From: Escherichia phage HK6 | Reading direction: 5' to 3' (one strand) | Sequence record: PP724615.1 | Length of the DNA: 64,000 bases | Part shown: positions 1,934 to 42,009 of the stretch, piece by piece | Position numbering within the stretch: position 1 is the stretch's first letter | Layout: the number at the start of each line of letters is the position of its first letter | Notes under the pieces: model-generated | Database searches by the model: none | The model's input: the letters and a program-made list of their open reading frames with translations, nothing else | What the model was told of the DNA's origin: nothing | Translations under genes and position numbers: made by a program

Positions 1934-2170
1934 TTAAAGAGCTGTCTCTTTAATAGACTCCCACTTCTTGGGGTCTTTAAAACCAGGAAGCATATCCTCA
2001 CTGACATCCCAGTTCTCTTCCATAGAGAAGTCGGGCCATTCATTCCAGCTACCTTCCAGCTCTTCATAACAGGTGTCCATTACCTCATGACTAGAAAGTC
2101 GTGTATAATCTCTAGCGGACTTATGAGTGCTAGCACGGTTAAAATCATTCTTTACTACAAAATTACGCAT
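1934..2170 (-). CDS. hypothetical protein, 78 aa
   Basis: ORF with GGAG RBS, co-oriented, no motif recognised. Confidence 0.5.
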   Translation of the reverse strand: MRNFVVKNDFNRASTHKSARDYTRLSSHEVMDTCYEELEGSWNEWPDFSMEENWDVSEDMLPGFKDPKKWESIKETAL

Positions 2171-2180
2171 AGTTTCTCCA

Positions 2181-2206
2181 AATAAGAGGGGCTTTCGCCC
2201 CCTGAT
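2181..2206 (-). terminator. rho-independent terminator (GGGGC-GAAA-GCCCC + T-rich)
   Basis: stem 2188..2201, TCTTATTT follows on minus strand. Confidence 0.6.
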
Positions 2207-2211
2207 TTAAA

Positions 2212-2427
2212 TTACTTGCCCAGCAGTTTAAGGATATTTTCCATAATAGTTTGGGCAGATTTTTCACTCTTGTTGGTTTCAGCCAACTTTAAAGCTAGTT
2301 CTTCCTGCTGTTTCTGAATATCCGCAGCAATTTTTTGATCAGCCTCAATACGAGCTTGAAGCTCATCAGTGATAGTGGTAAAGGAAGCAACGATTTCAGT
2401 AACGGAACGTGGTTTCTTAGAGAACAT
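2212..2427 (-). CDS. hypothetical helical protein, 71 aa
   Basis: ORF with AAGGA RBS; followed by GGGGC/GCCCC terminator. Confidence 0.5.
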   Translation of the reverse strand: MFSKKPRSVTEIVASFTTITDELQARIEADQKIAADIQKQQEELALKLAETNKSEKSAQTIMENILKLLGK

Positions 2428-2466
2428 AAAAAATATCCTTGATTAGTTAGAGAATTAGTAGATTGT

Positions 2467-2482
2467 AGGGGCTTCTGCCCCT
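2467..2482 (-). terminator. GC hairpin AGGGGC/GCCCCT without clear U-tract
   Basis: read directly; weak as terminator. Confidence 0.35.
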
Positions 2483-2491
2483 ATTTATCTA

Positions 2492-3007
2492 TTACTTCGC
2501 TTTACGCTTGCGAGCTGGTTTAGCAGATTTACGGGCAGAATCACCCGTGAACTTAATGCCTACACCGTAACACAGAGCGCGAACGTTATCTTTACTATAC
2601 TCTACGCCAAAGATATTTGGCTTAACAGAACCAAACTGTCCACGAGCATCACGTAGTACGTCTGCCGTTGGTTTACGCTTCTGGTTAACTGCTTTCTCAT
2701 AGTCTTTCATAGCCATGCCATTACGAGAGAACAATTCAGCCCCAGCGTTGAAGCTCAGGGAAACTGGGACAGATTTGTGGCCGTAATTTTCTACATACAT
2801 AACCATTTTGTAGGATTTACGGGTGGCATTTTTAGCTTTAGGCTTCTGACGAATCGGAGCCGGATTATTCAGTGCTTGTGCAGCCTGAGCATCGGTAGGA
2901 TGCTTACGCAGGTGGCGTTCCAGACGAGCTTTGCGATTAGCCTCGGTCTGCGGGAAAGTTTTAACTGCCGGAGCTGCTTGAGTTTTTGCGTTTTTCTGCT
3001 TAGCCAT
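2492..3007 (-). CDS. highly basic hypothetical protein, 171 aa (possible nucleic-acid binder)
   Basis: K/R-rich termini, AAGGAAAA RBS, strong promoter 3046..3074 upstream. Confidence 0.6.
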   Translation of the reverse strand: MAKQKNAKTQAAPAVKTFPQTEANRKARLERHLRKHPTDAQAAQALNNPAPIRQKPKAKNATRKSYKMVMYVENYGHKSVPVSLSFNAGAELFSRNGMAMKDYEKAVNQKRKPTADVLRDARGQFGSVKPNIFGVEYSKDNVRALCYGVGIKFTGDSARKSAKPARKRKAK

Positions 3008-3045
3008 TATTTGTTTTCCTTTTTGTTTATCAATTTATGAAGTAT

Positions 3046-3074
3046 ATTATACGAGAATTTGAAGCGTTTAGCAA
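3046..3074 (-). promoter_or_regulatory. sigma70 early promoter TTGCTA-17-TATAAT (matches my memory of T5 PH207)
   Basis: -35 3069..3074, -10 3046..3051; surrounding AAAAATTCATTTGCTAAACGCTTCAAATTCTCGTATAATATACTTCATAAATTGATAAAC. Confidence 0.85.
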
Positions 3075-3082
3075 ATGAATTT

Positions 3083-3532
3083 TTAATTTATTAACTGTAA
3101 GCTTCTTTTAATTTCAGACCTTACCTGCATCAAAAGAACTCCTAAAGTATTATCCCCGATGCCTCGGCAAACACCCCAATATGTATCTCCCCAGGTATTT
3201 CCTTCGATCAAAGTTGCATTTTTTGTTGCTAACAGTTTGTCCCTCAAATCAGGGATTGCAAACTTTAACCGTAAAAGCTCTAGCATTACATCATCTTTTA
3301 CCTTATCCCAGTCAGAGCGCAGAGTTAATTTACGTCCTCTACGTTTGGCAACACCTGCATTTAGGGAGCGCAGTACATGAGCTACATCATCTTTTTGGTC
3401 GGATTTCATAGCCTGAAAAGCATGTTCTACAGTATCAGCATGCCATATTTCATTCAGATATTCAAAAGTAATTGGTGATAAATAAAAGTTTGATAAGAAA
3501 CTATAAGCACCTTTAAATTCAGTAATCTTCAT
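3083..3532 (-). CDS. NADAR (YbiA/DUF1768) family protein, 149 aa
   Basis: N-terminal YSFLSNFY, EHAFQAMK, WGDTYWG and LG..LMQVR motifs typical of NADAR domains. Confidence 0.75.
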   Translation of the reverse strand: MKITEFKGAYSFLSNFYLSPITFEYLNEIWHADTVEHAFQAMKSDQKDDVAHVLRSLNAGVAKRRGRKLTLRSDWDKVKDDVMLELLRLKFAIPDLRDKLLATKNATLIEGNTWGDTYWGVCRGIGDNTLGVLLMQVRSEIKRSLQLIN

Positions 3533-3813
3533 TTTTTACGCCCCGCATCTTTAGCCTCTTCGGCTGTATAGATATACTGATAAGCCCCTTTGGAGTATGC
3601 TGGAGCAGTACACATTTTCTTACGCTCAATCTCTTCTTGAGCTTTTCTTTCGCGTTCAGCTAATTCTTCGTCCAGATAAACTAAACGTTGTTCTGGAGGG
3701 GGTGGAAGACGTGTTTCTGGCTCACCAATATTAGCCTTTCTTATTTGACGAGGTGATTGTGCGCGTTTTCTCAATGGTTTAAATCCTAATGAATTTGAGT
3801 TATAAATCCGCAT
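3529..3813 (-). CDS. hypothetical protein, 94 aa
   Basis: GAGGAGGG RBS, promoter 3841..3869 upstream, stop overlaps NADAR start. Confidence 0.55.
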   Translation of the reverse strand: MRIYNSNSLGFKPLRKRAQSPRQIRKANIGEPETRLPPPPEQRLVYLDEELAERERKAQEEIERKKMCTAPAYSKGAYQYIYTAEEAKDAGRKK

Positions 3814-3840
3814 AAAGCCCTCCTCACTTTCAATACGAAT

Positions 3841-3869
3841 ATTATACTAAATTAGAGGGCTTTAAGCAA
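3841..3869 (-). promoter_or_regulatory. sigma70 early promoter TTGCTT-17-TATAAT
   Basis: -35 3864..3869, -10 3841..3846. Confidence 0.75.
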
Positions 3870-3890
3870 GAGAATTTTTCAATTTATTTA

Positions 3891-4367
3891 TCACATCTCA
3901 GCCATTTCAGCTTCAGTAATAACTGTATTACATAAGGCATCTACAGCTTCATTACCACTAATACCAGAATGTCCTTTAACCTTAATAAAGGTAGGGTTAG
4001 TATTATGAAAGTTGATATACTGCTGTGTTAATTTAAATGCTTCCTGCCAAAGTTCTAGATTAAGAGGAACTTCACCATCTGCTTTCTTCCAGCCTTTCCT
4101 TTGCCAAGAAAACATCCAACTTTCCATGCCATTTTTGCAATAAGCAGAGTCAGTATAGATAGCAATTGGTCTATTATCTTTTTTAACAGACCAACGTAGA
4201 GCTTCTACGATAGCTGTGAGTTCCATCTCATTATTTGTAGTTTTAGGATTATAACCAGATTTAGAACCTAAACGATCGTAGTTATCATCATAGACAATAA
4301 AACCCCAAGCACCTGGACCTGGGTTAGACTTACAAGCACCATCTGTGTAAATGTGGAAAACCGACAT
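3891..4367 (-). CDS. rnh: RNase H (RNase HI type), 158 aa from ATG 4367
   Basis: YTDGACKSNPGPGAWG, NNEMEL, YTDS, KGHSG..GNE.VD motifs; ATG 4367 overlaps upstream stop (TAATG) and follows GGGAGG; the track start 4379 is a TTG inside the RBS. Confidence 0.85.
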   Translation of the reverse strand: MSVFHIYTDGACKSNPGPGAWGFIVYDDNYDRLGSKSGYNPKTTNNEMELTAIVEALRWSVKKDNRPIAIYTDSAYCKNGMESWMFSWQRKGWKKADGEVPLNLELWQEAFKLTQQYINFHNTNPTFIKVKGHSGISGNEAVDALCNTVITEAEMAEM

Positions 4368-4648
4368 TATACCTCCCAACTAATTTTAAGACCCATGTCT
4401 ACAAAGGCGGCTTCTCGGTAGTATTGTGAGAGATGATACCCCTTATCCGATAAGGTTTTTAGTACCGATTTAGCTGCTCCTGGCATTTCTCTAGGATTAT
4501 ATAGCCACCTAGCGTAAGGATTATCTCGAATAATTACTTCTGTATTTCCAGACTTAGCAGCTTCTACAATCTTTTCTTCTATAAACTTTAGAAATGCAGG
4601 TACTTCTGTTAACCCTGCAAGTTCTTGAGCTTCTTTGGCTGAAATCAT
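4367..4648 (-). CDS. hypothetical protein, 93 aa
   Basis: TTGGAGG RBS, promoter 4674..4702 upstream. Confidence 0.55.
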   Translation of the reverse strand: MISAKEAQELAGLTEVPAFLKFIEEKIVEAAKSGNTEVIIRDNPYARWLYNPREMPGAAKSVLKTLSDKGYHLSQYYREAAFVDMGLKISWEV

Positions 4649-4673
4649 TATATACCTCCAATTTATAAAATAT

Positions 4674-4702
4674 ATTATATTTAAATTTCACTAAATAAGC
4701 AA
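4674..4702 (-). promoter_or_regulatory. sigma70 early promoter TTGCTT-17-TATAAT
   Basis: -35 4697..4702, -10 4674..4679. Confidence 0.75.
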
Positions 4703-4711
4703 ATGAAATTT

Positions 4712-4734
4712 AAATATAATAGCCCCGAAGGGCT
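4712..4734 (-). terminator. terminator after thyA (AGCCC-TTCG-GGGCT + ATTATATTT)
   Basis: stem 4721..4734. Confidence 0.6.
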
Positions 4735-4741
4735 ACTTAAG

Positions 4742-5581
4742 TTAAGAGGACATTTTAGCTTTAAGAGCTGGATGTGGATCATATCCTTCAAGTTGGAAGG
4801 ACCAAGCCGCAGTATTATTCTCTAATAAATCATAGAGATCTACAAATTCTGGCATTACTAGAGTTGGCAAAGGACGTGGTTTGCGTTTCATTTGCTCCTC
4901 TACTTGCTCTATATGATCACTGTAAATATGTGTATCTCCACCACTAAAGATGAGATAACGAGGTTTTAATCCAGTCAGTTTTGCCAGGATATGTGTTAAT
5001 AAAGCATAGCTAGCAATATTGAAAGGCAGACCTAGAAAACAGTCTACAGAACGTTGTGTCCATTTAAGGTCTAAGTATCCATCATTACTTACGTAACATT
5101 GAAAACCATAGTGACATGGTGGTAATGCCATCTTATCCAGTTCAGCTACGTTCCATGCGGATACTAGGTGTCTACGACCGTGTGGATTATTCTTGAGACC
5201 CTCAATGAGTTCTAGGATCTGATCTCGTCCACCAAAGTTACGCCATTGTTTACCATATACTGGCCCTAGATTACCATTGTCATATCCCATACTTATGGCT
5301 TGGTCTTCATAATTTGGAGTCCAGATGGTCCACTGTCCTTCGTCACGCCCAAATGTGAATACTCGCAGATCATGGAGATTTGTAGATCCAGATAAAAACC
5401 ATAAGAGTTCTCCAACTACCGACTTCCAAGCTAGACGTTTTGTAGTTACAGCTGGAAATCCCTCACGTAAATCGAACTTAGCATAGGAATCAAAAATTGA
5501 AACTGTGCCTGTTCCTGTACGGTCGTTACGTGGTTCACCTAGTAGAATTACATCTGTTAGAATTTTTAAATATTGTTGCAT
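4742..5581 (-). CDS. thyA: thymidylate synthase, 279 aa
   Basis: RNDRTGTGT and ALPPCHYGFQ (catalytic Cys) signatures. Confidence 0.95.
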   Translation of the reverse strand: MQQYLKILTDVILLGEPRNDRTGTGTVSIFDSYAKFDLREGFPAVTTKRLAWKSVVGELLWFLSGSTNLHDLRVFTFGRDEGQWTIWTPNYEDQAISMGYDNGNLGPVYGKQWRNFGGRDQILELIEGLKNNPHGRRHLVSAWNVAELDKMALPPCHYGFQCYVSNDGYLDLKWTQRSVDCFLGLPFNIASYALLTHILAKLTGLKPRYLIFSGGDTHIYSDHIEQVEEQMKRKPRPLPTLVMPEFVDLYDLLENNTAAWSFQLEGYDPHPALKAKMSS

Positions 5582-6114
5582 TAATAAGTAACCAATTCCT
5601 GTACAAATCGCAGGCTGTTATCACTGTTTGCGCCAGTTGCGTAAACTAAACGAGTAGATTCATAGTTGTAATCTAGAATCGTATTATCCAGATGTACATC
5701 TGCCTCTAGTTTTTGATTACTAAAGATTGTTGATACAAAAGCACTTTCAATATGTCCATGAATATACATTTCGTACAGTAATGTTGCACCGCCTAAAACC
5801 ACTGTCTGTTGATCTTTTAAGAATGTGGGTAATGTATCTCCAATCTTTGAAATTGGGGTATAGATACCATGTTTAATATCATCAGGCAGAGGACGATCCG
5901 CACGAATAAAGAGATCAGATTCTCCAATCATACGTTGCCGAACAACTTCTGGAAGTGCTAAATAAGTACCCGCACCAATGATGATGTTATCTGGATTCAA
6001 CACGTCCAGTTGAGAATAGAAAGCATCTAGTTCTTCTTTGAAGGAACCCCAGGGGAGTTTACCTCGGAGGCCGAACTCTCCATTCGGCCCAACTGCATAT
6101 ATTGCTGTAATCAT
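5581..6114 (-). CDS. frd: dihydrofolate reductase, 177 aa
   Basis: N-terminal IYAVGPNGEFGLRGKLPW motif, size, position between nrdB and thyA. Confidence 0.85.
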   Translation of the reverse strand: MITAIYAVGPNGEFGLRGKLPWGSFKEELDAFYSQLDVLNPDNIIIGAGTYLALPEVVRQRMIGESDLFIRADRPLPDDIKHGIYTPISKIGDTLPTFLKDQQTVVLGGATLLYEMYIHGHIESAFVSTIFSNQKLEADVHLDNTILDYNYESTRLVYATGANSDNSLRFVQELVTY

Positions 6115-34020: not shown

Positions 34021-34981
34021 TGCTGATCATCATATTAAGCTGGGCCAAGATAAGATACCAAAAGAATGGCAGAAGCGTCGCTTCCTGATGCTAGGAGAAC
34101 GGTTAAATGATATATTCCATAGTCATAACTGTGATCTTCATATTGCTGGTGGTGATATACTTGATGTTGCCGACCCGTCGTCAGAAGAAATAGAACTGCT
34201 TGAACAGTTCATGTCAAGACTTGACCATCCAGGCAAAATCTTTACTGGAAATCATGAAATGTTAACGAAAACCATTTCATGCCTATATCATTATGCAGGA
34301 GTTATTAATAAAGTAACGAGTGGGAAGTGGGAAGTAATTACCAAACCATATCGTTCCCCTGAGTTTGATATTGTTCCATATGACGAAATCCATAAATCCA
34401 AATGGAAACCATCTGAATCAAAACTATGTTTCACACATGTTCGTGGTGAAATACCTCCACATGTAAAACCAGAAATTGATCTAACTAAGTACAACTGTTA
34501 TGATACTGTAATTGCTGGCGATTTACATTCTTATACTAATAGCCAGACTATCGGATCCACTAGACTTCTCTACCCAGGGTCTCCATTAACTACATCGTTT
34601 CATAGAGAACGCACAAAAGGTACAAATGGTTGCTTTATCATTGATACCGACACATTAAAAGTAGAATGGATTGAACTCGGTGATTTACCACAACTGATTC
34701 GTAAAACAATCGGAGCGGGTGAAGAGATGGAACCTAGTGATTATGATCGTGTAGTCTATGAAGTTACTGGTGACGTTGTTCAATTAAAGTCTATTAAAGA
34801 CTCTGATTTATTAGATAAGAAGATTAACCATCGAGTTACTAAAGATGCTAAGTTAAATCTTGTTGATCTTGATATGTTAGGTGAACTTGAACTTTACTTC
34901 CGTGAAGTCGAGAAGCTATCTCAAGGAGACATTGATAGAATCTTAGCTAGAGCTGCGAAATATGTCAAAGATTACAATTAA
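34004..34981 (+). CDS. SbcD/Mre11-like nuclease (T5 D12), 325 aa (GTG start)
   Basis: phosphoesterase motifs SADHH, GGDILD, GNHE. Confidence 0.85.
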   Translation: MKILFSADHHIKLGQDKIPKEWQKRRFLMLGERLNDIFHSHNCDLHIAGGDILDVADPSSEEIELLEQFMSRLDHPGKIFTGNHEMLTKTISCLYHYAGVINKVTSGKWEVITKPYRSPEFDIVPYDEIHKSKWKPSESKLCFTHVRGEIPPHVKPEIDLTKYNCYDTVIAGDLHSYTNSQTIGSTRLLYPGSPLTTSFHRERTKGTNGCFIIDTDTLKVEWIELGDLPQLIRKTIGAGEEMEPSDYDRVVYEVTGDVVQLKSIKDSDLLDKKINHRVTKDAKLNLVDLDMLGELELYFREVEKLSQGDIDRILARAAKYVKDYN

Positions 34982-36800
34982 GACACTAAAATTTAGTAAC
35001 GTTATGTCTTACGGTAAGGACATCGTAATTCATTTCGATAAGAATCCAGTTACTCAACTAATTGGTGGCAATGGGCTAGGGAAATCCACCATCGCTACTG
35101 TTATTGAAGAACTATTCTATAATAAGAACTCACGTGGTATTAAGAAGGATGCTCTGTTCTCTTGGTCTACTCCGAAAAAAGAGTACGATATGCACGCTTA
35201 CTTCTCGAAAGATGAAGATGAGTACGAACTACATAAAGTAGTTAAATCAACTGCTAAAGTAACTCTTATTAAGAATGGAGAAGATATTAGTGGACACACG
35301 GCAACTCAAACATACAAGATGATTGAGGAGATTATGGGAGGTGACTTCCAAACGTTCACCAAACTAATTTATCAATCAGTGGGTTCCAATCTAGACTTTC
35401 TAAAAGCAACAGATGCAACACGTAAGGCTTTTCTTGTTAACTTGTTCAATCAAGAACAGTATAAAGAAATGTCAGAAACTATTAAGGCTGACCGTAAAGA
35501 AATAGCAAATACCTTAAATAATTTGCAGGGCCAAATGGCTGTAATTACGAAAATCCTTAATGGAAAGAATAATCTAGGAACTCTACAGGAACCTGTAGAA
35601 GTACCCGAGTTTGATGAAGAGCCATTAGCACAAGAACTTACTGAATCGAAAATTAAGGCGGCATTAGCCAAGTCTCAAGAGGCTAATATTACTAAATTGC
35701 GTAATTTGGACAAAGCTGTACAAGTTGCCGAACAATCTTTCGAGCCTTTCAAAAATTTGCCTGCGCCCACTGACCAAAATGAAGAGATCTCGAGTGTTAC
35801 GCGTGACCTAACGATTGTGACCTCACGTGCGGGCGAAGTCAAGAAACGTTATCAGAAGTTCAAGCAAGAAGCTTCAAATACTGAATGTCCTACTTGTGGT
35901 ACTCATCTGGATACAACTGCTGCTCAAAAAGCAATGGATATGGCTAGAACAGAATATGATCCTCTGTTCAAAGAGAAGCAATCTCTTGAAGCTAAGTTAG
36001 AACAGTTGAAGAAAGAACAACTTGAATACACTGCATATATTAGAGCAAAGGATGCTTTGGATAAAGCAGTGATAGCTAGAGACGAGTTCAAAAATTCAAT
36101 GAGTGATGCTTCTTTTGAAGAACTCAATGTGCAAATCCTACAGGTGCAAATCCGACAATTAGAACAGGAAATCGCTGATGGCCGTTCTAAGGTTGCAATT
36201 GCCAAAGAGCATAACGCAAATGTTGAATTAGCCAATGCAAAATATAAGGCGAAACTAGAACAGATTGAGAAAGCTGAGGCAGAACTGTCTGAGATTACTT
36301 CCAAACTGGATGAAGTATCAGAAGCTGTTGCTGATCTCGATATTCTGATCGCCGCATTGAAAAATCTGGTAGGGTATAAGCTAGAGCATAGTGTGAAAGT
36401 ATTTGAAGAGCTTATCAATAAATACCTTTCCATTATGACTGGTGGTAAGTTCGCACTTGGATTTGAACTTGATGAAACAAAATTACAAGTAGTAATCTTC
36501 AATGATGGAAATCGTACTAGTATGGAGAATTGCTCTACTGGTCAGCAAAGTAGAATCAATCTAGCAACTCTGTTAGCTATTCGAATGCTACTAACATCTA
36601 TTAGTAAAGTTAATATTAATCTTCTATTCCTTGATGAAGTAATTAGCTTTATTGATACTAAAGGACTTGACACTCTTGTTGAATTATTAAATGAGGAAGA
36701 AAGTCTAAATTCTATCATTGTTTCTCACGGGCATACGCATCCATTGGCTCATAAGATTACTGTCAAAAAAGATGCAGAAGGATTTTCCTACTTAGAATAA
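34962..36800 (+). CDS. SbcC/Rad50-like ATPase (T5 D13), 612 aa
   Basis: Walker A GGNGLGKST, central coiled coil with CPTCG zinc hook, Walker B LFLDEV. Confidence 0.85.
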   Translation: MSKITIKTLKFSNVMSYGKDIVIHFDKNPVTQLIGGNGLGKSTIATVIEELFYNKNSRGIKKDALFSWSTPKKEYDMHAYFSKDEDEYELHKVVKSTAKVTLIKNGEDISGHTATQTYKMIEEIMGGDFQTFTKLIYQSVGSNLDFLKATDATRKAFLVNLFNQEQYKEMSETIKADRKEIANTLNNLQGQMAVITKILNGKNNLGTLQEPVEVPEFDEEPLAQELTESKIKAALAKSQEANITKLRNLDKAVQVAEQSFEPFKNLPAPTDQNEEISSVTRDLTIVTSRAGEVKKRYQKFKQEASNTECPTCGTHLDTTAAQKAMDMARTEYDPLFKEKQSLEAKLEQLKKEQLEYTAYIRAKDALDKAVIARDEFKNSMSDASFEELNVQILQVQIRQLEQEIADGRSKVAIAKEHNANVELANAKYKAKLEQIEKAEAELSEITSKLDEVSEAVADLDILIAALKNLVGYKLEHSVKVFEELINKYLSIMTGGKFALGFELDETKLQVVIFNDGNRTSMENCSTGQQSRINLATLLAIRMLLTSISKVNINLLFLDEVISFIDTKGLDTLVELLNEEESLNSIIVSHGHTHPLAHKITVKKDAEGFSYLE

Positions 36801-36803
36801 AAC

Positions 36804-37286
36804 ATGGCTGTAGATAGTAGAGAGAAAGGTAAACGTGGTGAATATCAGGTAAGAGATATTTTACGTGAACGTACAGGTCTTGAGTGGGAACGTGTTCCTG
36901 GTTCTGGTGCTTTTGGCCAGAGCCATGGACTAAAAGGTGACATCTACCTTCCACCACAAAGCGGACACATTAGTAAATACTGCTTCGAAGTTAAGTGGTA
37001 TAAAGATGACGCATTATCAAGTAATTTATTTAATGTTGGTGAATCCACTCTAGAGAAGTGGTGGCAGCAGTGCTCACGTGAAGGTGAGCAGATGAACTCC
37101 AAACCTGCATTAATATTCAAAAAAGACAGAGGACAGTGGTTAATAGCTTTGGATAGCTCAGACCCGATGGTTGACAACTTAATGAGTCGTACCCATATGG
37201 TGTTAAATAAGAAAGACATGGAAATCGTAATTGGTTTATTTGAGCCGTGGCTACATCATGCATCTGTTGAGGACTTAATTAAATAA
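36804..37286 (+). CDS. PD-(D/E)XK nuclease / Holliday-junction-resolvase-like protein (T5 D14), 160 aa
   Basis: GDIY ... FEVKW (D...ExK) arrangement; synteny between D13 and D15. Confidence 0.6.
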   Translation: MAVDSREKGKRGEYQVRDILRERTGLEWERVPGSGAFGQSHGLKGDIYLPPQSGHISKYCFEVKWYKDDALSSNLFNVGESTLEKWWQQCSREGEQMNSKPALIFKKDRGQWLIALDSSDPMVDNLMSRTHMVLNKKDMEIVIGLFEPWLHHASVEDLIK

Positions 37287-38161
37287 TGAGTAAATCCTGG
37301 GGAAAATTTATTGAAGAAGAGGAAGCTGAAATGGCTTCCCGTCGTAACCTAATGATTGTCGATGGAACTAACTTAGGCTTTCGCTTCAAGCATAATAATA
37401 GTAAGAAACCATTTGCCTCAAGTTATGTTTCCACTATTCAATCTCTTGCAAAATCTTATTCTGCTAGAACTACAATAGTTTTAGGGGATAAAGGGAAGTC
37501 AGCATTCCGCTTAGAGCATTTACCTGAGTATAAAGGGAACCGAGATGAGAAATACTCGCAGCGTACGGAAGAGGAGAAAGCGTTAGATGAGCAGTTCTTC
37601 GAGTATTTGAAAGATGCTTTCGAGTTATGTGAAACTACATTCCCAACTTTCACTATTCGTGGTGTAGAAGCAGACGACATGGCAGCTTATATTGTTAAGC
37701 TCATCGGGCATCTATATGATCACGTTTGGCTAATTTCTACCGATGGTGACTGGGATACCTTATTAACTGATAAAGTTTCTCGTTTTTCTTTCACAACGCG
37801 TCGTGAATACCATCTTCGTGATATGTATGAGCATCATAATGTTGATGATGTAGAGCAGTTTATCTCTCTGAAAGCAATTATGGGTGATTTAGGGGATAAT
37901 ATCCGTGGTGTCGAGGGTATCGGGGCAAAACGCGGGTATAATATTATTCGTGAATTTGGTAACGTTCTGGATATTATTGATCAGCTTCCACTGCCTGGAA
38001 AACAGAAATATATACAGAATTTAAATGCTTCGGAAGAACTGCTTTATCGAAACCTAATTCTGGTTGATTTACCTACCTACTGTGTGGATGCTATTGCTGC
38101 TGTAGGTCAAGATGTATTAGATAAGTTTACAAAAGATATTTTGGAGATTGCAGAACAATGA
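37286..38161 (+). CDS. 5'-3' flap endonuclease (T5 D15 exonuclease), 291 aa
   Basis: FEN motifs IVDGTNL, GVEADD, STDGDWD, GDLGDNIRGVEGIG; size equals T5 D15. Confidence 0.95.
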   Translation: MSKSWGKFIEEEEAEMASRRNLMIVDGTNLGFRFKHNNSKKPFASSYVSTIQSLAKSYSARTTIVLGDKGKSAFRLEHLPEYKGNRDEKYSQRTEEEKALDEQFFEYLKDAFELCETTFPTFTIRGVEADDMAAYIVKLIGHLYDHVWLISTDGDWDTLLTDKVSRFSFTTRREYHLRDMYEHHNVDDVEQFISLKAIMGDLGDNIRGVEGIGAKRGYNIIREFGNVLDIIDQLPLPGKQKYIQNLNASEELLYRNLILVDLPTYCVDAIAAVGQDVLDKFTKDILEIAEQ

Positions 38162-38604
38162 TTAAAATTAAATTAACTCATCCAGATTGTATGCCTAAGA
38201 TTGGTTCCGAAGATGCCGCAGGTATGGATCTACGAGCATTCTTTGGTACTAACCCTGCTGCAGATTTACGCGCTATTGCACCTGGTAAATCCCTAATGAT
38301 TGACACCGGTGTCGCGGTGGAAATTCCGCGAGGTTGGTTCGGTTTGGTAGTTCCACGCAGCTCTTTAGGTAAGCGTCATCTGATGATTGCAAACACCGCA
38401 GGGGTGATCGATTCAGACTATCGTGGAACTATTAAGATGAACCTTTATAACTATGGTTCTGAAATTCAAACTCTGGAGAATTTTGAAAGACTTTGTCAGC
38501 TAGTAGTAGTACCACACTACTCAACTCATAATTTTGAAATCGTTGACGAACTGGGGGAGACTAATCGTGGGGAAGGCGGATTTGGAAGTTCAGGAAGCAA
38601 ATAA
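38158..38604 (+). CDS. dut: dUTPase, 148 aa
   Basis: AAGMDLRA, GVIDSDYRG, RGEGGFGSSG motifs. Confidence 0.9.
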   Translation: MIKIKLTHPDCMPKIGSEDAAGMDLRAFFGTNPAADLRAIAPGKSLMIDTGVAVEIPRGWFGLVVPRSSLGKRHLMIANTAGVIDSDYRGTIKMNLYNYGSEIQTLENFERLCQLVVVPHYSTHNFEIVDELGETNRGEGGFGSSGSK

Positions 38605-38830
38605 TTTTACTGATCCTAATATGATAGGTGTTGATACTAATGCGTCAACTTATCAGATTAAAACTACTGAACCAGAAACGTTTGTGCTAAGAACGGATAA
38701 AGAAGGTAATGTTATTTTCTGGGATCCTGAAGGTTTTGTAGAGCTTTGTACTAATACAGATAATGAGCAGTTAAAATTACTACTAACTATTTATAATCTT
38801 GGCATTATAGAAGGTTGTAGAAGTGAATAA
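38534..38830 (+). CDS. hypothetical protein, up to 98 aa (true start probably internal, e.g. ATG 38621)
   Basis: last plus-strand ORF before the bidirectional terminator; 70-nt overlap with dut makes the listed start doubtful. Confidence 0.4.
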   Translation: MKSLTNWGRLIVGKADLEVQEANNFTDPNMIGVDTNASTYQIKTTEPETFVLRTDKEGNVIFWDPEGFVELCTNTDNEQLKLLLTIYNLGIIEGCRSE

Positions 38831-38833
38831 CAG

Positions 38834-38870
38834 AAAAAACCCCAGTGGATTTTGTCCACTGGGGTTTATT
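38834..38870. terminator. bidirectional terminator at the early/late convergence point
   Basis: CCCCAGTGG/CCACTGGGG stem 38840..38864 flanked by A6 and T-run. Confidence 0.85.
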
Positions 38871-38920
38871 GTACTTAGCATCATAAAACTACGCTAAGTT
38901 CTCTATATTAACAAGTTTAT

Positions 38921-39085
38921 TTACAGGGCTTTAAGTTCTTCAGCGAAGTTACCGCGACCACCCCAACCGTTACCGATCCAGAAACCAATCAAACCACCAA
39001 TTGCATCACCGATACCAGCCGCACCAGCTTCGCTACCAAAGCCGTCACCGCCCAGATTGGTAGGTAAAAGAGTCAAGTCAGACAT
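38921..39085 (-). CDS. 54-aa glycine-zipper peptide MSDLTLLPTNLGGDGFGSEAGAAGIGDAIGGLIGFWIGNGWGGRGNFAEELKAL (below ORF-track cutoff)
   Basis: hand translation; GGAG 8 nt before ATG 39085; flanked by two terminators; 15 of 54 residues Gly with five consecutive GxxxG spacings. Confidence 0.5.
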   Translation of the reverse strand: MSDLTLLPTNLGGDGFGSEAGAAGIGDAIGGLIGFWIGNGWGGRGNFAEELKAL

Positions 39086-39306
39086 AAGAAAATCTCCATA
39101 TATGGGTTGTTAGACGGATGTAACCAGTTGGTTACACTGGTAAGTATACTCGCTAACATACTATTTACCATGATATGCGTGTAAATAAATTGTAAATAGC
39201 CTGGCATTGGTACTCCTATAATGCAATGGACGCCATGACTTGAACAAAAGGAGGGAGTTATGTTTAAACGCGGTGCGGTCATAGGTAAGGCGAGAAAGTG
39301 ACAACT

Positions 39307-39340
39307 AAAAAAAAAAAAAAAAGGAGCCAAACGGCTCCTT
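39307..39340 (-). terminator. terminator after tail fibre gene: AAGGAGCC-GTTT-GGCTCCTT followed by T16
   Basis: stem 39321..39340; homopolymer 39307..39322. Confidence 0.9.
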
Positions 39341-39351
39341 AATTATTGTGG

Positions 39352-42009
39352 TTATGGCAGATCGTTGTTAACCACATTGCCCTTCAACGCAGCTATCTCC
39401 GCTTTCAAACTATCAATTTCTGCTTTGAGCGCTTGAGTGGCGCCCATCAAGTCCATAATAATAGGGTTAGTATCAATTGAAGGTCTGTCTCGGGTCTTCT
39501 GTGAAACAATTTTCTTCTCGACTTCACGACGAATAAATTTCTGTTCAATGCGTTGTTCTTTGATTTGTTCTGTAATACCAGTTTCGGGGTCGGTATAATC
39601 TACAGTAACCTCTACAGGTACATCCTCGTATATATCCTTATAAACATCCTCGTATACATCCTCATAAATCTCTTCATTGTGCTTCACATATTGTGGGGTG
39701 ACTTTCTCCGATTCTTCTGCAATAATACCAAATCTTATTCTTTCTTGTTCATCATCCTTATAAATAAAAGTGACCATGCGTTGTGCCATGATGCGGTTTA
39801 AAGCATCAATAGGATTACCGTCATTGATCTCCTTTTTATATGCTAAGCCAGATGTTCCTTGCAGTGCAAGGGTTCCGGCAGCACTCGGAAGCCTAATCCA
39901 ATACTCAGGCGAACCTGCTGGGGTATATGTTTGAAATCCATAGCTCCCTACAGTTTCGCTAAATCCAACACGGGTTCGAATAACTCCATTTGCTGCTAAG
40001 TTACAAGCATAAGACGCTGCACCATTGGATCTAAACGTTGCAGCGTCGGTTCCTGCTTCCCCGCCACCTGCTACAATCCGCCCGGTAATATAGGTAGAGA
40101 ACGCAAGTGTAATCCCAGTACCCGCACCCCCAATGATTACCGGAGTAGAATGATACGTGCCATCCTCATTGTAGTAGTAGAATGCATAGGCCCCGCTGGC
40201 AGCATGCCCTGATCGCCATCTTACAGTAGATGGACTGGAAGGTCCAGTATAGGCTGTGTAAGCCGTACCCGCACCCGTCGCTCTAACTAATAGGCTGTCT
40301 TGACTATAGCTCCCAGTTGTCCTGAGCTGACCAACTTCCCCAAATGAATTAGTCTTGTGAGATGGTAGCGTGACTGTTTTAGCTGAAGCGCTGTAGTTAA
40401 AGACAGCATTAGTGCTACTAGTATTATTCTCCTGGAGTCGTATGCTACCGCCATCCATAACCATAACATAGCCAGTTACATCACCTGCGGCGTCAACTTC
40501 TTCAAATTTAATTGTTGGGTTAGCACTCTTGATTAAAAGAGGGTCACTAGCGGTCGCCCCAAATTCTGCATTAAGGTTAAACTTCTGCTTTTTGGTAAAA
40601 GTATTTTCAGCACCAAGTCTAGCTATGCTGGAAGGGTCCATTGAATCCACATACCCTTTCGCACGGTTAGCTTCCTCTGTTGCTAGGGTAGCTTTCTGCC
40701 CTGCGGTTGTAGCGCTGCCTGCGGCTGCTGTAGCTTGTTTCACCGCTTCGGTTGCACTAGCACCCGCTTGAGTTGCAGAAGCTGCGGCAGCGTCTTTTAG
40801 TGGGGTTATTGCATTAATTGCTTCCGTCTTAGCTGTATTAACTTCTTTGACTGCGTCGGCTTTAGCTGTTGCGACTTCAGTCAACGCGGAGTCTTTAATT
40901 GCTTGAGTATCTGTTTTTAACTGAGTAACGTCAGCCTTAATCTGAGTAACTGTAGCTACAGCAGCGTTAGTTGTGTTAGCAGACCCCGCCGCGTCAGCTT
41001 GTGCTTGTCTAGCAGCCTCTTCACTAGCTTTTGAGTTAGTTTCACTAGCTTTTGAGTTAGTTTCTGAATTTTTTGCTGCAGCAGCAGCAGCAGTAGCCTG
41101 CGTAGCGAATATTTCTGCCTCATCCCTGAATCCTTTGGAATCAGAAGCAGATGCAGCACTACTAGCAGCGTTAGTTTCTGAAGTTTTAGCTGCGGAAGCG
41201 GATGCAGCAGCGTTAGTTTCTGAAGCTTTTGCAGCTGCAGCAGAAGCAGCCGCAGCCGTTTCTGAGGTTTTAGCCGCTGAAGCAGAAGCAGACGCAGCAG
41301 TTTTGCTACTATTAGCATTAGTCTCAGAAGTTTTAGCCGCTGTTTCACTAGCTTTTGCATTAGTCTCAGAAGTTTTAGCTGCGGTTTCACTAGCTTTTGC
41401 GTTGGTTTCTGAAATTTTTGCTGCTGTTTCACTAGCTTTTGCATTAGTCTCAGAAGTCTTAGCAGCTTTAGCACTGTTAGCAGAAGCAGTAGCAGAAGAA
41501 GCAGAAGCAGTAGCAGAAGAAACAGACTGAGCTGCAGAAGAAGCAGACTGAGTTGCAGATTGTTGAGAAGATCCTGCGGAAATTTCTGCTTCATTCTCAG
41601 AAGTTTTAGCCGCTATTTCACTTGCTTTTGCGTTAGTTTCTGAAGTTTTAGCCGCTATTTCACTTGCTTTTGCATTGGTCTCAGAAGTCTTAGCAGCTTT
41701 AGCACTATTAGCCGAAGCAGTAGCAGAAGACGCAGACTGAGTTGCAGATTGCTGGGAAGATGTTGCGGAAATTTCAGCTTCATTCTCAGAGTCTTTAGCA
41801 CTTAATTCTGACTGTTTAGCATTAATCTCAGATTGCTTAGCTGCTGCAGCGGATGCTTTAGAGGACTCTATAGCAGAGGTTAGCTCTGCAGCAGTAATGG
41901 AGCTAATTGTATTCCCAAGAACTACAGTGTATTTAGGGTATTTACTTGCAGTTACACTATTTTGGTCCATAGTGACCATTTGTTGTAAAATTATTTTCGT
42001 TATAGCCAT
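39352..42009 (-). CDS. ltf: L-shaped (lateral) tail fibre protein, pb1-like, 885 aa, with C-terminal S74 intramolecular chaperone
   Basis: N-terminus [18 protein letters not shown] as in T5 pb1, long A-K-x-S-E-x-x heptad array, C-terminal SGLAYKKEIN...RFGIIAEE chaperone domain with terminal coiled coil. Confidence 0.9.
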   Translation of the reverse strand: MAITKIILQQMVTMDQNSVTASKYPKYTVVLGNTISSITAAELTSAIESSKASAAAAKQSEINAKQSELSAKDSENEAEISATSSQQSATQSASSATASANSAKAAKTSETNAKASEIAAKTSETNAKASEIAAKTSENEAEISAGSSQQSATQSASSAAQSVSSATASASSATASANSAKAAKTSETNAKASETAAKISETNAKASETAAKTSETNAKASETAAKTSETNANSSKTAASASASAAKTSETAAAASAAAAKASETNAAASASAAKTSETNAASSAASASDSKGFRDEAEIFATQATAAAAAAKNSETNSKASETNSKASEEAARQAQADAAGSANTTNAAVATVTQIKADVTQLKTDTQAIKDSALTEVATAKADAVKEVNTAKTEAINAITPLKDAAAASATQAGASATEAVKQATAAAGSATTAGQKATLATEEANRAKGYVDSMDPSSIARLGAENTFTKKQKFNLNAEFGATASDPLLIKSANPTIKFEEVDAAGDVTGYVMVMDGGSIRLQENNTSSTNAVFNYSASAKTVTLPSHKTNSFGEVGQLRTTGSYSQDSLLVRATGAGTAYTAYTGPSSPSTVRWRSGHAASGAYAFYYYNEDGTYHSTPVIIGGAGTGITLAFSTYITGRIVAGGGEAGTDAATFRSNGAASYACNLAANGVIRTRVGFSETVGSYGFQTYTPAGSPEYWIRLPSAAGTLALQGTSGLAYKKEINDGNPIDALNRIMAQRMVTFIYKDDEQERIRFGIIAEESEKVTPQYVKHNEEIYEDVYEDVYKDIYEDVPVEVTVDYTDPETGITEQIKEQRIEQKFIRREVEKKIVSQKTRDRPSIDTNPIIMDLMGATQALKAEIDSLKAEIAALKGNVVNNDLP
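39619..39675 (-). repeat. 12-nt tandem repeat encoding EEIY-EDVY-EDVY-KDIY-EDV inside the fibre chaperone domain
   Basis: read from DNA and translation. Confidence 0.8.
41005..41860 (-). repeat. 21-nt (heptad A-K-x-S-E-x-x) tandem array in tail fibre shaft, with an internal ~190-nt duplication
   Basis: aa 51-335 of the fibre; blocks SENEAEISA(T/G)SSQQSATQSASSA...AKTSETNAKASE occur twice. Confidence 0.85.

Follow-up and report, generated by a model that had tools for sequence, protein, structure and literature searches.

How a T5-like phage comes to hold a stretch of about 480 nt enclosed by two terminators, and whether the small open reading frame (ORF) inside it is a gene, are the questions raised by this locus. 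The DNA analysed here (the window, 64 kb in full) is that of a Tequintavirus, and its nearest backbone in the phage collection is slur09, with 95.6% identity. On the plus strand lie the genes for the SbcC-like, D14, flap endonuclease, dUTPase and DUF7369 proteins (34962..38830); on the minus strand lies ltfA (39352..42009), which encodes an 885-residue L-shaped tail-fibre protein of the LtfA type with a Peptidase_S74 chaperone domain. A sequence-only reading had described the DNA between these genes as a moron-like, self-contained cassette encoding a peptide with the signature of membrane-inserting glycine zippers. We argue below that it is most probably a recombination scar, namely the stump of a gene that came along as a passenger next to a tail-fibre end of horizontal origin.

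A terminator-bounded unit and its small reading frame

Both of the hairpins that had been proposed to bound the unit were found. The first is a bidirectional terminator of the resident T5-type backbone (38837..38867, both strands, stem of 13–14 bp) that ends the early operon on the plus strand and the original ltf gene on the minus strand; it is conserved in other T5-like phages, and the record of phage BB1 annotates two terminators there. The second is the terminator of the imported tail-fibre 3′ end (39307..39340, minus strand), made up of a hairpin (39321..39340) and a T16 run that appears on the plus strand as an A-run at 39307..39322. Its T-run is variable (T16 in the window, T6 in Gostya9 and T10–11 in Seuratvirus), and its loop is inverted in the window relative to the Seuratvirus copies. 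The unit sits where early and late transcription converge.

Within it, the 54-codon ORF was located on the minus strand at 38921..39085, with a translation identical to the peptide first read from the sequence, and with a GGAG Shine–Dalgarno sequence (39097..39094, minus strand) 8 nt 5′ of the ATG that is conserved in Gostya9 and in the Seuratvirus alleles. The glycine content had been given as 28%, which agrees with our count (15/54 residues, 27.8%). The description of five in-register GxxxG spacings needs adjustment: five glycines are indeed in register (G26, 30, 34, 38 and 42), which makes four consecutive spacings, and G13-17-21 gives two more, for a total of six. In shuffled sequences, the number of GxxxG spacings is not above the expectation from composition (P=0.10 over the full peptide, 0.49 within its Gly-rich core), and a chain of at least five in-register glycines is weakly above it (P=0.03 and 0.13, respectively).

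Homology is more informative about the origin of the ORF. The peptide matches the N-terminus of phrog_9288 with E=5.7e-17 (hmmscan, profile positions 1–45 of 234), and a tblastn search of the 64-kb window with the corresponding SLUR25 protein recovers the same place with E=1e-19, covering only residues 1–54 of this parent. On these two matches, the ORF is not a chance ORF but coding-derived sequence.

The imported tail-fibre end and its two junctions

A 2.1-kb block of the window (38942..41042) is approximately 92% identical to the Seuratvirus phages Skure and SLUR25. BLAST homology to these phages spans 38958..41042 (92%) and reaches 38942 when an 18-nt in-frame deletion (GNGGWG) is allowed for, which the window fragment has in common with Gostya9. 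The block starts within the fibre gene, of which it contains the last 1.7 kb at the 3′ end, and continues through the fibre terminator and the donor intergenic promoter region into the first 48 codons of the next donor gene. Its fibre portion (39352..41042, minus strand) comprises the receptor-binding part and the Peptidase_S74 intramolecular chaperone, as assigned from 92% identity to the side tail fibre of SLUR25 and Skure and from a Peptidase_S74 match; the 5′ part of ltfA (41043..42009, minus strand), with its Ala-rich repeats, lies outside the block and is T5-type by homology. At the right boundary, Seuratvirus homology stops at about 41042, and homology to Gostya9 and other T5-like phages goes on.

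The left junction can be placed at base level, directly after GRGNFA at 38942. The 74 nt beyond it (38868..38941, minus strand) have no Seuratvirus match and share 91.5% nucleotide identity with the 3′ end of ltf in MET_P1_100_107, a T5-like Salmonella phage whose ltf protein carries a Peptidase_S74 domain and ends in EVEELKVLVNKLINTDNLA before the stop codon. They are what remains of the ltf gene of the resident T5-type backbone and comprise its final 17 codons, the old TAG stop (38891..38889) and its 3′ UTR. In Gostya9, the old ltf tail is still in frame and the ORF ends in EELKAFVNKLVNIENLA, for a total of 65 residues; in the window, a 1-nt deletion in this tail makes the ORF end in EELKAL after 54 residues.

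Gostya9 is the only other T5-like phage with a DNA match to the cassette, which is otherwise matched by the Seuratvirus phages Skure, SLUR25 and SLUR63. Its 65-residue hypothetical protein (T59_0121c/HOT33_gp075; the record note cites Escherichia phage Greed) is like the window ORF in position, in the GRGNFA junction and in the 18-nt deletion; the flanking terminators and the ltfA module are also alike, and the cassettes share 89–92% nucleotide identity. The two differ in the reading frame of the old ltf tail and at five amino acids over the shared 48 residues. No further carrier of the junction was found in IMG/VR, metagenome contigs or genome contigs, which leaves the window and Gostya9 as the two known cases. 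The ORF is not mentioned in the BASEL collection paper (Maffei et al., PMC8594841) or in other papers that mention Gostya9, its genome paper aside.

The ordinary Tequintaviruses BB1 and slur09 have no cassette, and their ltf stop codon lies directly against the bidirectional terminator. The proposal that the unit is foreign to the T5 backbone is therefore upheld, and absence from close relatives in which the flanking genes are adjacent is a property that the cassette shares with morons. The proposal that it is self-contained fails, since a moron should hold a complete gene, and here the first 48 codons of a gene of about 232 codons are fused to the old ltf tail. As for signals of its own, the cassette has promoter candidates at the level of consensus and conservation, and its downstream terminator is that of the backbone. 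Together, the mapped junctions and the cassette-free BB1 and slur09 indicate that the cassette is the overhang of a tail-fibre module swap and that the ORF (38921..39085) is a chimera formed at the left junction.

The parent gene and its upstream signals

Alignments to SLUR25 and Skure identify 38942..39085 (minus strand) as the first 48 codons of a phrog_9288-family gene, with the N-terminus MSDxTLLP followed by a Gly-rich segment. The hallmark of the family, MSDMTLLP and then a Gly-rich G..LIGSW.GNG segment, is recognizable in the window ORF. In Seuratviruses, the same start codon opens a protein of about 235 residues that begins with MSDMTLLPTNLGGDGFGG and ends in PTPPTGCC; past the point that corresponds to the junction, the SLUR25 protein continues with GRGNFAGPVEVQ to residue 235. 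For the family, 169 hits were obtained, nearly all of 225–265 residues, and 127 clusters were counted at 50% identity; it occurs in Seuratvirus, Nonagvirus, Hanrivervirus and Sashavirus as a protein of about 232 residues, annotated as hypothetical in the full-length examples named below. A longer upstream start that is annotated in SLUR25 and Skure (MPGYLQF...) was ruled out, since in the window it is out of frame owing to a 1-nt indel, and since MSD is where the PHROG profile begins.

Full-length members feature a predicted helix of approximately 157 residues, the motifs QGFAGLN, CCC/CCCET and PTPPTPP, and a proline-rich C-terminus. AlphaFold2 modelled the N-terminal 63 residues of the full-length protein as disordered and residues 65–221 as a single helix, with low confidence (pLDDT 54). 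The family has no relative in Pfam, NCBIfam or PADLOC, a profile search of its alignment against solved structures gave only chance-level hits (E≥0.4), and a cluster look-up returned no names for its remote members. In SLUR25, in the Hanrivervirus phage aaroes and in the Sashavirus phage Sasha, phrog_9288 heads a conserved four-gene set with phrog_9157, phrog_8329 and phrog_7239. None of these three partners is present in the 64-kb window.

Full-length proteins such as SLUR25 SLURMMXVI_140074, the CAjan and Greed homologues, Sasha gp07 and aaroes gp76 correspond to the window ORF over their first 48 residues, and their genes share with it the ribosome-binding site, the inverted repeat in the 5′ UTR and the promoter-like region; in Seuratvirus the gene immediately follows a side-tail-fibre gene that encodes an S74 chaperone domain. 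Unlike the window ORF, they are 231–237 residues long, include the 157-residue predicted helix, QGFAGLN, CCCET and the terminal PTPPTPPTGCC, and are followed by the three partner genes. The long helical domain, these motifs, the proline-rich C-terminus and the family length are all missing from the window ORF. Because it stops at residue 54 and no further homology occurs anywhere in the window, the ORF is a fragment of a phrog_9288 family member rather than a member.

Such fragments are not confined to this lineage; many short, frameshifted N-terminal pieces of its members occur in the protein library searched. Among T5-like phages, the Epseptimavirus phages have 109-residue ORFs (bux_40, KKP_3831 PVA66_000136, vaffelhjerte_38) that belong to the same family, occupy the same slot between ltf and the dut-side terminator, and are likewise no longer full length. 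They represent a different allele (approximately 71% nucleotide identity) and, in contrast to the window, are broken by an in-frame TAG and downstream decay rather than by a recombination junction: in bux, KKP_3831, MET_P1-88 and vaffelhjerte, the TAG follows codon 109 and recognizable decayed sequence comes after it, and the KKP_3831 copy has an additional frameshift. In the Seuratvirus phage KurtStettler, an S74 chaperone domain is fused in frame to residue ~20 of the phrog_9288 protein, which suggests that the Gly-rich coding stretch is a recurrent site of recombination. The label “lateral tail fiber chaperone” on the KurtStettler protein was rejected as a clue to phrog_9288 function, as it most probably derives from the fused S74 domain and not from the phrog_9288 part.

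Homology to this family also bears on the idea that the peptide is a secreted toxin of the class II microcin kind, led by a double-glycine sequence (MSDLTLLPTNLGG). The GG at residues 12–13 and the Gly-rich composition are the only features that fit it. The supposed leader dissolves in the alignment, where NLGG(D) is an indel specific to a lineage and absent from most homologues, and MSDMTLLP is conserved as the N-terminus of a 232-residue protein. The peptide matches no bacteriocin family in Pfam at E≤10 and none in NCBIfam at E≤0.1; neither a C39-peptidase exporter nor an immunity gene is present among the ORFs of 36000..42000, which are SbcC, D14, flap endonuclease, dUTPase, the DUF7369 protein and ltfA; and the genome is that of a lytic phage. 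The microcin reading thus looks effectively refuted by homology, and we regard it as having next to no chance of being correct.

The upstream region was expected to carry a promoter, and a conserved promoter-like region with candidate status was indeed found there. The best candidate by conservation (39170..39143, minus strand) consists of a putative −35 box TGGTAA, a 16-nt spacer and a putative −10 box TATACT; divergent Seuratvirus and Nonagvirus alleles read TTGTAA/TTGTGA-N16-TATGCT at the same position. A consensus scan offered TTTACA-16-TAGTAT (39185..39158) as an alternative. The inverted repeat that had been noted (39120..39135, minus strand) is present as described, reading GTAACCAGTTGGTTAC on the plus strand and GTAACCAACTGGTTAC on the minus strand. 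It starts 7 nt downstream of the candidate promoter and, in the form GTAACC-NNNN-GGTTAC, is predicted to fold into a hairpin of 8 bp at the very start of the transcript or close to it. Its arms are conserved in Seuratvirus alleles, with 5+5 retained in Nonagvirus-type alleles, and the centre alone varies. The predicted RNA fold of the whole UTR is not exceptional (z=−1.6). The promoter-like elements, the ribosome-binding site and the repeat are the donor gene's own signals, inherited by descent, which may fire during T5-like infection.

These upstream elements could alternatively be what is kept, with the DNA serving as an insulator of convergent early and late transcription, a spacer or a promoter, and the ORF being incidental. 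The location between two terminators at the point of convergence fits this, as does the observation that the upstream region, including the inverted repeat and the promoter-like boxes, has diverged by 5.6% in the window lineage, less than the synonymous sites of the ORF. However, most T5-like phages manage with a single bidirectional terminator and no spacer, and the conserved elements are explained by descent as a donor promoter and 5′ UTR. We therefore consider a retained non-coding role very unlikely.

Selection, possible functions and origin of the fragment

A more serious competitor of the scar is that the N-terminal Gly-rich fragment was recruited as a small protein with a function of its own, such as a membrane-active glycine-zipper peptide that acts in lysis timing, exclusion or host physiology, with the imported promoter driving its expression. 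Neither the window nor Gostya9 has lost the start codon, the ribosome-binding site or the promoter-like region, five glycines are in register, and N-terminal fragments persist as ORFs of 54, 65 and 109 residues in two groups of T5-like phages. The physical properties of the peptide argue the other way. Its Kyte–Doolittle maximum over 19 residues is 1.29, below the usual threshold of 1.6, and no segment reaches a transmembrane threshold. A rough, position-independent sum on the Hessa scale gives +6.1 kcal/mol for the window compared to +4.6 kcal/mol for the SLUR25 parent; the worse value is due to D27, which is mid-way in the would-be helix. The 54-residue peptide has no match in Pfam, NCBIfam or PADLOC (for the Gly-zipper families of Pfam, none at E≤10), and the homologous region is modelled as disordered in the full-length protein, at the low confidence given above. 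The record of Sasha gp07 carries no transmembrane-domain note, though a neighbouring gene in the same record has one. The membrane-inserting glycine-zipper of the sequence-only reading finds little backing, and nothing was found in favour of the suggested roles in exclusion, lysis timing or toxicity; homology points to a truncated gene instead.

Residue conservation adds to the case against co-option. Three of the four amino-acid changes that are unique to the window hit conserved residues, namely M4, S35 and the nearly invariant G18. M4 and S35 are both invariant in an alignment of 47 proteins: M4 is kept in all 34 full-length alleles compared (34/34) and is replaced by Leu in the window, by Thr in Gostya9 and by Arg in the Epseptimavirus copies, while position 35, which is Phe in the window, is Ser in 38/38 other aligned alleles. 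The C-terminal tail is not conserved either, as a frameshift separates the sole two carriers.

Conservation and dN/dS in relatives had been suggested as a check, and the outcome is divided. Substitutions in the window lineage are biased to synonymous sites (10 synonymous and 4 non-synonymous), pairwise dN/dS of the fragment is 0.08–0.15 (0.08 with Skure), and 9/12 transitions are synonymous (P=0.006). This looks like purifying selection, but it is confounded, because the dS of the ORF far exceeds that of its neighbour and the distances conflict with the shared junction. The ORF dS of 0.49 is 5–16 times that of the adjacent ltfA (0.03–0.09; P about 1e-5 to 1e-6), and the window is as distant from Gostya9 as from Skure, with Gostya9 and Skure closer to each other, which is at odds with the junction that the window and Gostya9 share. 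The rate of divergence at non-synonymous sites of the ORF is that of the non-coding flanks (P=0.6), and the window-specific changes cluster in a patch of about 180 nt (38982..39161) that includes the 5′ UTR. Synonymous variants unique to the window are CTG-GGC-GGT at codons 11–13, GCA at codon 28 and TTG at codon 32.

The conflict in distances and the excess in dS indicate that the region is mosaic. The simplest reading is that the patch came from an unsampled full-length allele that recombined into the already truncated cassette, and the synonymous excess over ltfA accordingly suggests an imported patch and not selection in place. For the same reasons, dN/dS was rejected as a decisive test of function. 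An exact-pattern scan of IMG/VR for a donor allele with the window-specific D27 sequence gave one unrelated chance hit, and a word-index protein search with the 54-residue peptide returned four proteins, with Gostya9 closest and no entry identical to the window peptide. As no donor allele was found, the synonymous excess leaves a small probability of retained function. Pairs of the Epseptimavirus 109-codon ORF differ by 1–3 non-synonymous and 0 synonymous changes, and only two genomes carry the junction, both of which speak against co-option. Weighing both sides, we consider co-option of the fragment unlikely. It is also improbable, by a similar judgement and if anything slightly more so, that the Gly-rich N-terminal module of phrog_9288 is an autonomous unit that T5-like phages keep as a micro-protein of 54–109 residues under purifying selection; were this true, a recombination scar would have given rise to a small protein.

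The account that we favour is a recombination scar. We observe directly where the mosaic block begins and ends, that the gene is truncated, and that neither its remainder nor its partners are present. In this account, the distal part of the L-shaped tail-fibre gene of a T5-like ancestor was replaced by the 2.1-kb block from a Seuratvirus-type siphophage. The block overran the donor fibre stop codon, carrying along the terminator, the intergenic promoter, the 5′ UTR and 48 codons of the next gene, and at the left crossover codon 48 became fused to the final 17 codons of the old ltf, creating the chimeric ORF. This ORF runs to the old stop in Gostya9 (65 residues), and the 1-nt deletion ends the window copy earlier, at 54. 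The imported promoter and ribosome-binding site may still allow the fragment to be expressed, yielding a product that probably has no selected function. The fragment may persist owing to its place between the new fibre terminator and the backbone terminator, neither of which the phage could do without.

This is a known kind of feature, here with well-resolved junctions. Recombination moves host-range modules such as tail fibres between unrelated phages and leaves broken or partial genes at the fibre locus or next to it, as in laboratory phage lambda with its frameshifted side-tail-fibre locus. The present case differs in that the break lies in the gene beside the fibre gene, and in that Demerecviridae and Queuovirinae are the groups between which the exchange took place, both junctions being mapped.

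The analysis averts a false lead, as a Gly-rich mini-ORF with its own signals proves to be what remains of a larger gene after a swap of the host-range module. It also provides a cleanly mapped tail-fibre exchange between these unrelated phage families, in which both junctions are resolved. The more interesting feature to which it points is the uncharacterized four-gene set led by phrog_9288, which is conserved across Seuratvirus, Hanrivervirus (family Drexlerviridae) and Sashavirus.

The phrog_9288 family outside the cassette

The gene family that supplied the first 48 codons of the junction ORF heads a conserved four-gene set, completed by phrog_9157, phrog_8329 and phrog_7239, which is present in Seuratvirus, in Hanrivervirus (family Drexlerviridae) and in Sashavirus; it occupies 2161-4248 of the SLUR25 locus (L003), 3818-5639 of the aaroes locus (L009) and 3848-5742 of the Sasha locus (L010). 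None of the four members has a match in Pfam, NCBIfam or PADLOC. The phrog_9288 protein, in which a CCC motif and a proline-rich motif at the C-terminus are invariant, is predicted to have a disordered, glycine-rich N-terminus followed by a helix of ~157 residues.

In Escherichia phage KurtStettler, a 510-aa ORF (L011, 3020-4552) is an in-frame fusion of the distal part of a tail fibre, which ends in its own S74 chaperone domain, to the phrog_9288 protein at residue ~20 of the latter (...LLVQVCRE|AGAAGIGG...); its record annotates it as a 'putative lateral tail fiber chaperone'. The family gene is a pseudogene in the Epseptimavirus T5-like phages (Salmonella phage bux, L004 2900-3630; further loci L005-L007), where an in-frame TAG after codon 109 is followed by ~49 further homologous codons and then by long A-runs and decayed sequence. 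The KKP_3831 copy carries one additional frameshift.

A divergent patch over the ORF start

Window-specific substitutions are concentrated in a patch of ~180 nt (38982-39161) that covers codons 1-35 of the ORF, its 5' UTR and the -10 box, with 24 changes (13%) as against 1-3% in the flanking DNA. Relative to Seuratvirus, dS is 0.49 in the ORF and 0.03-0.09 in adjoining ltfA. The searches turned up no donor allele for the patch.

Features in and beside the cassette

On the DUF7369 side, the longest ORF for that protein starts at a TTG at 38534 on the plus strand and shares 71 nt (38534-38604) with the 3' end of dut. Because a shorter version of 82 aa is annotated in Gostya9 and BB1, the real start probably lies downstream.

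Towards ltfA, a 13-codon mini-ORF on the plus strand (MFKRGAVIGKARK, then a stop) is directed into the ltfA terminator and is preceded by a very strong Shine-Dalgarno-like AAGGAGGGAG; the two together lie at 39246-39302. This element and the ATG are kept in Gostya9 and Seuratvirus; a 1-nt indel in Skure and SLUR25 alters the frame and length. The terminator itself (39307-39340) has an identical stem in T5-like and Seuratvirus copies, whereas its loop is inverted between them (GTTT versus AAAC); the T-run is polymorphic in length, with 16 residues in the window against 6 for Gostya9 and 10-11 for the Seuratvirus copies.

dN/dS along ltfA

Among the window, Gostya9 and SLUR25, dN/dS is ~1 or above (0.7-2.5) over ltfA residues ~450-720 (39850-40660), the presumed receptor-binding part, and 0.1-0.25 over the S74 chaperone part. 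This pattern fits diversifying selection acting on host range.
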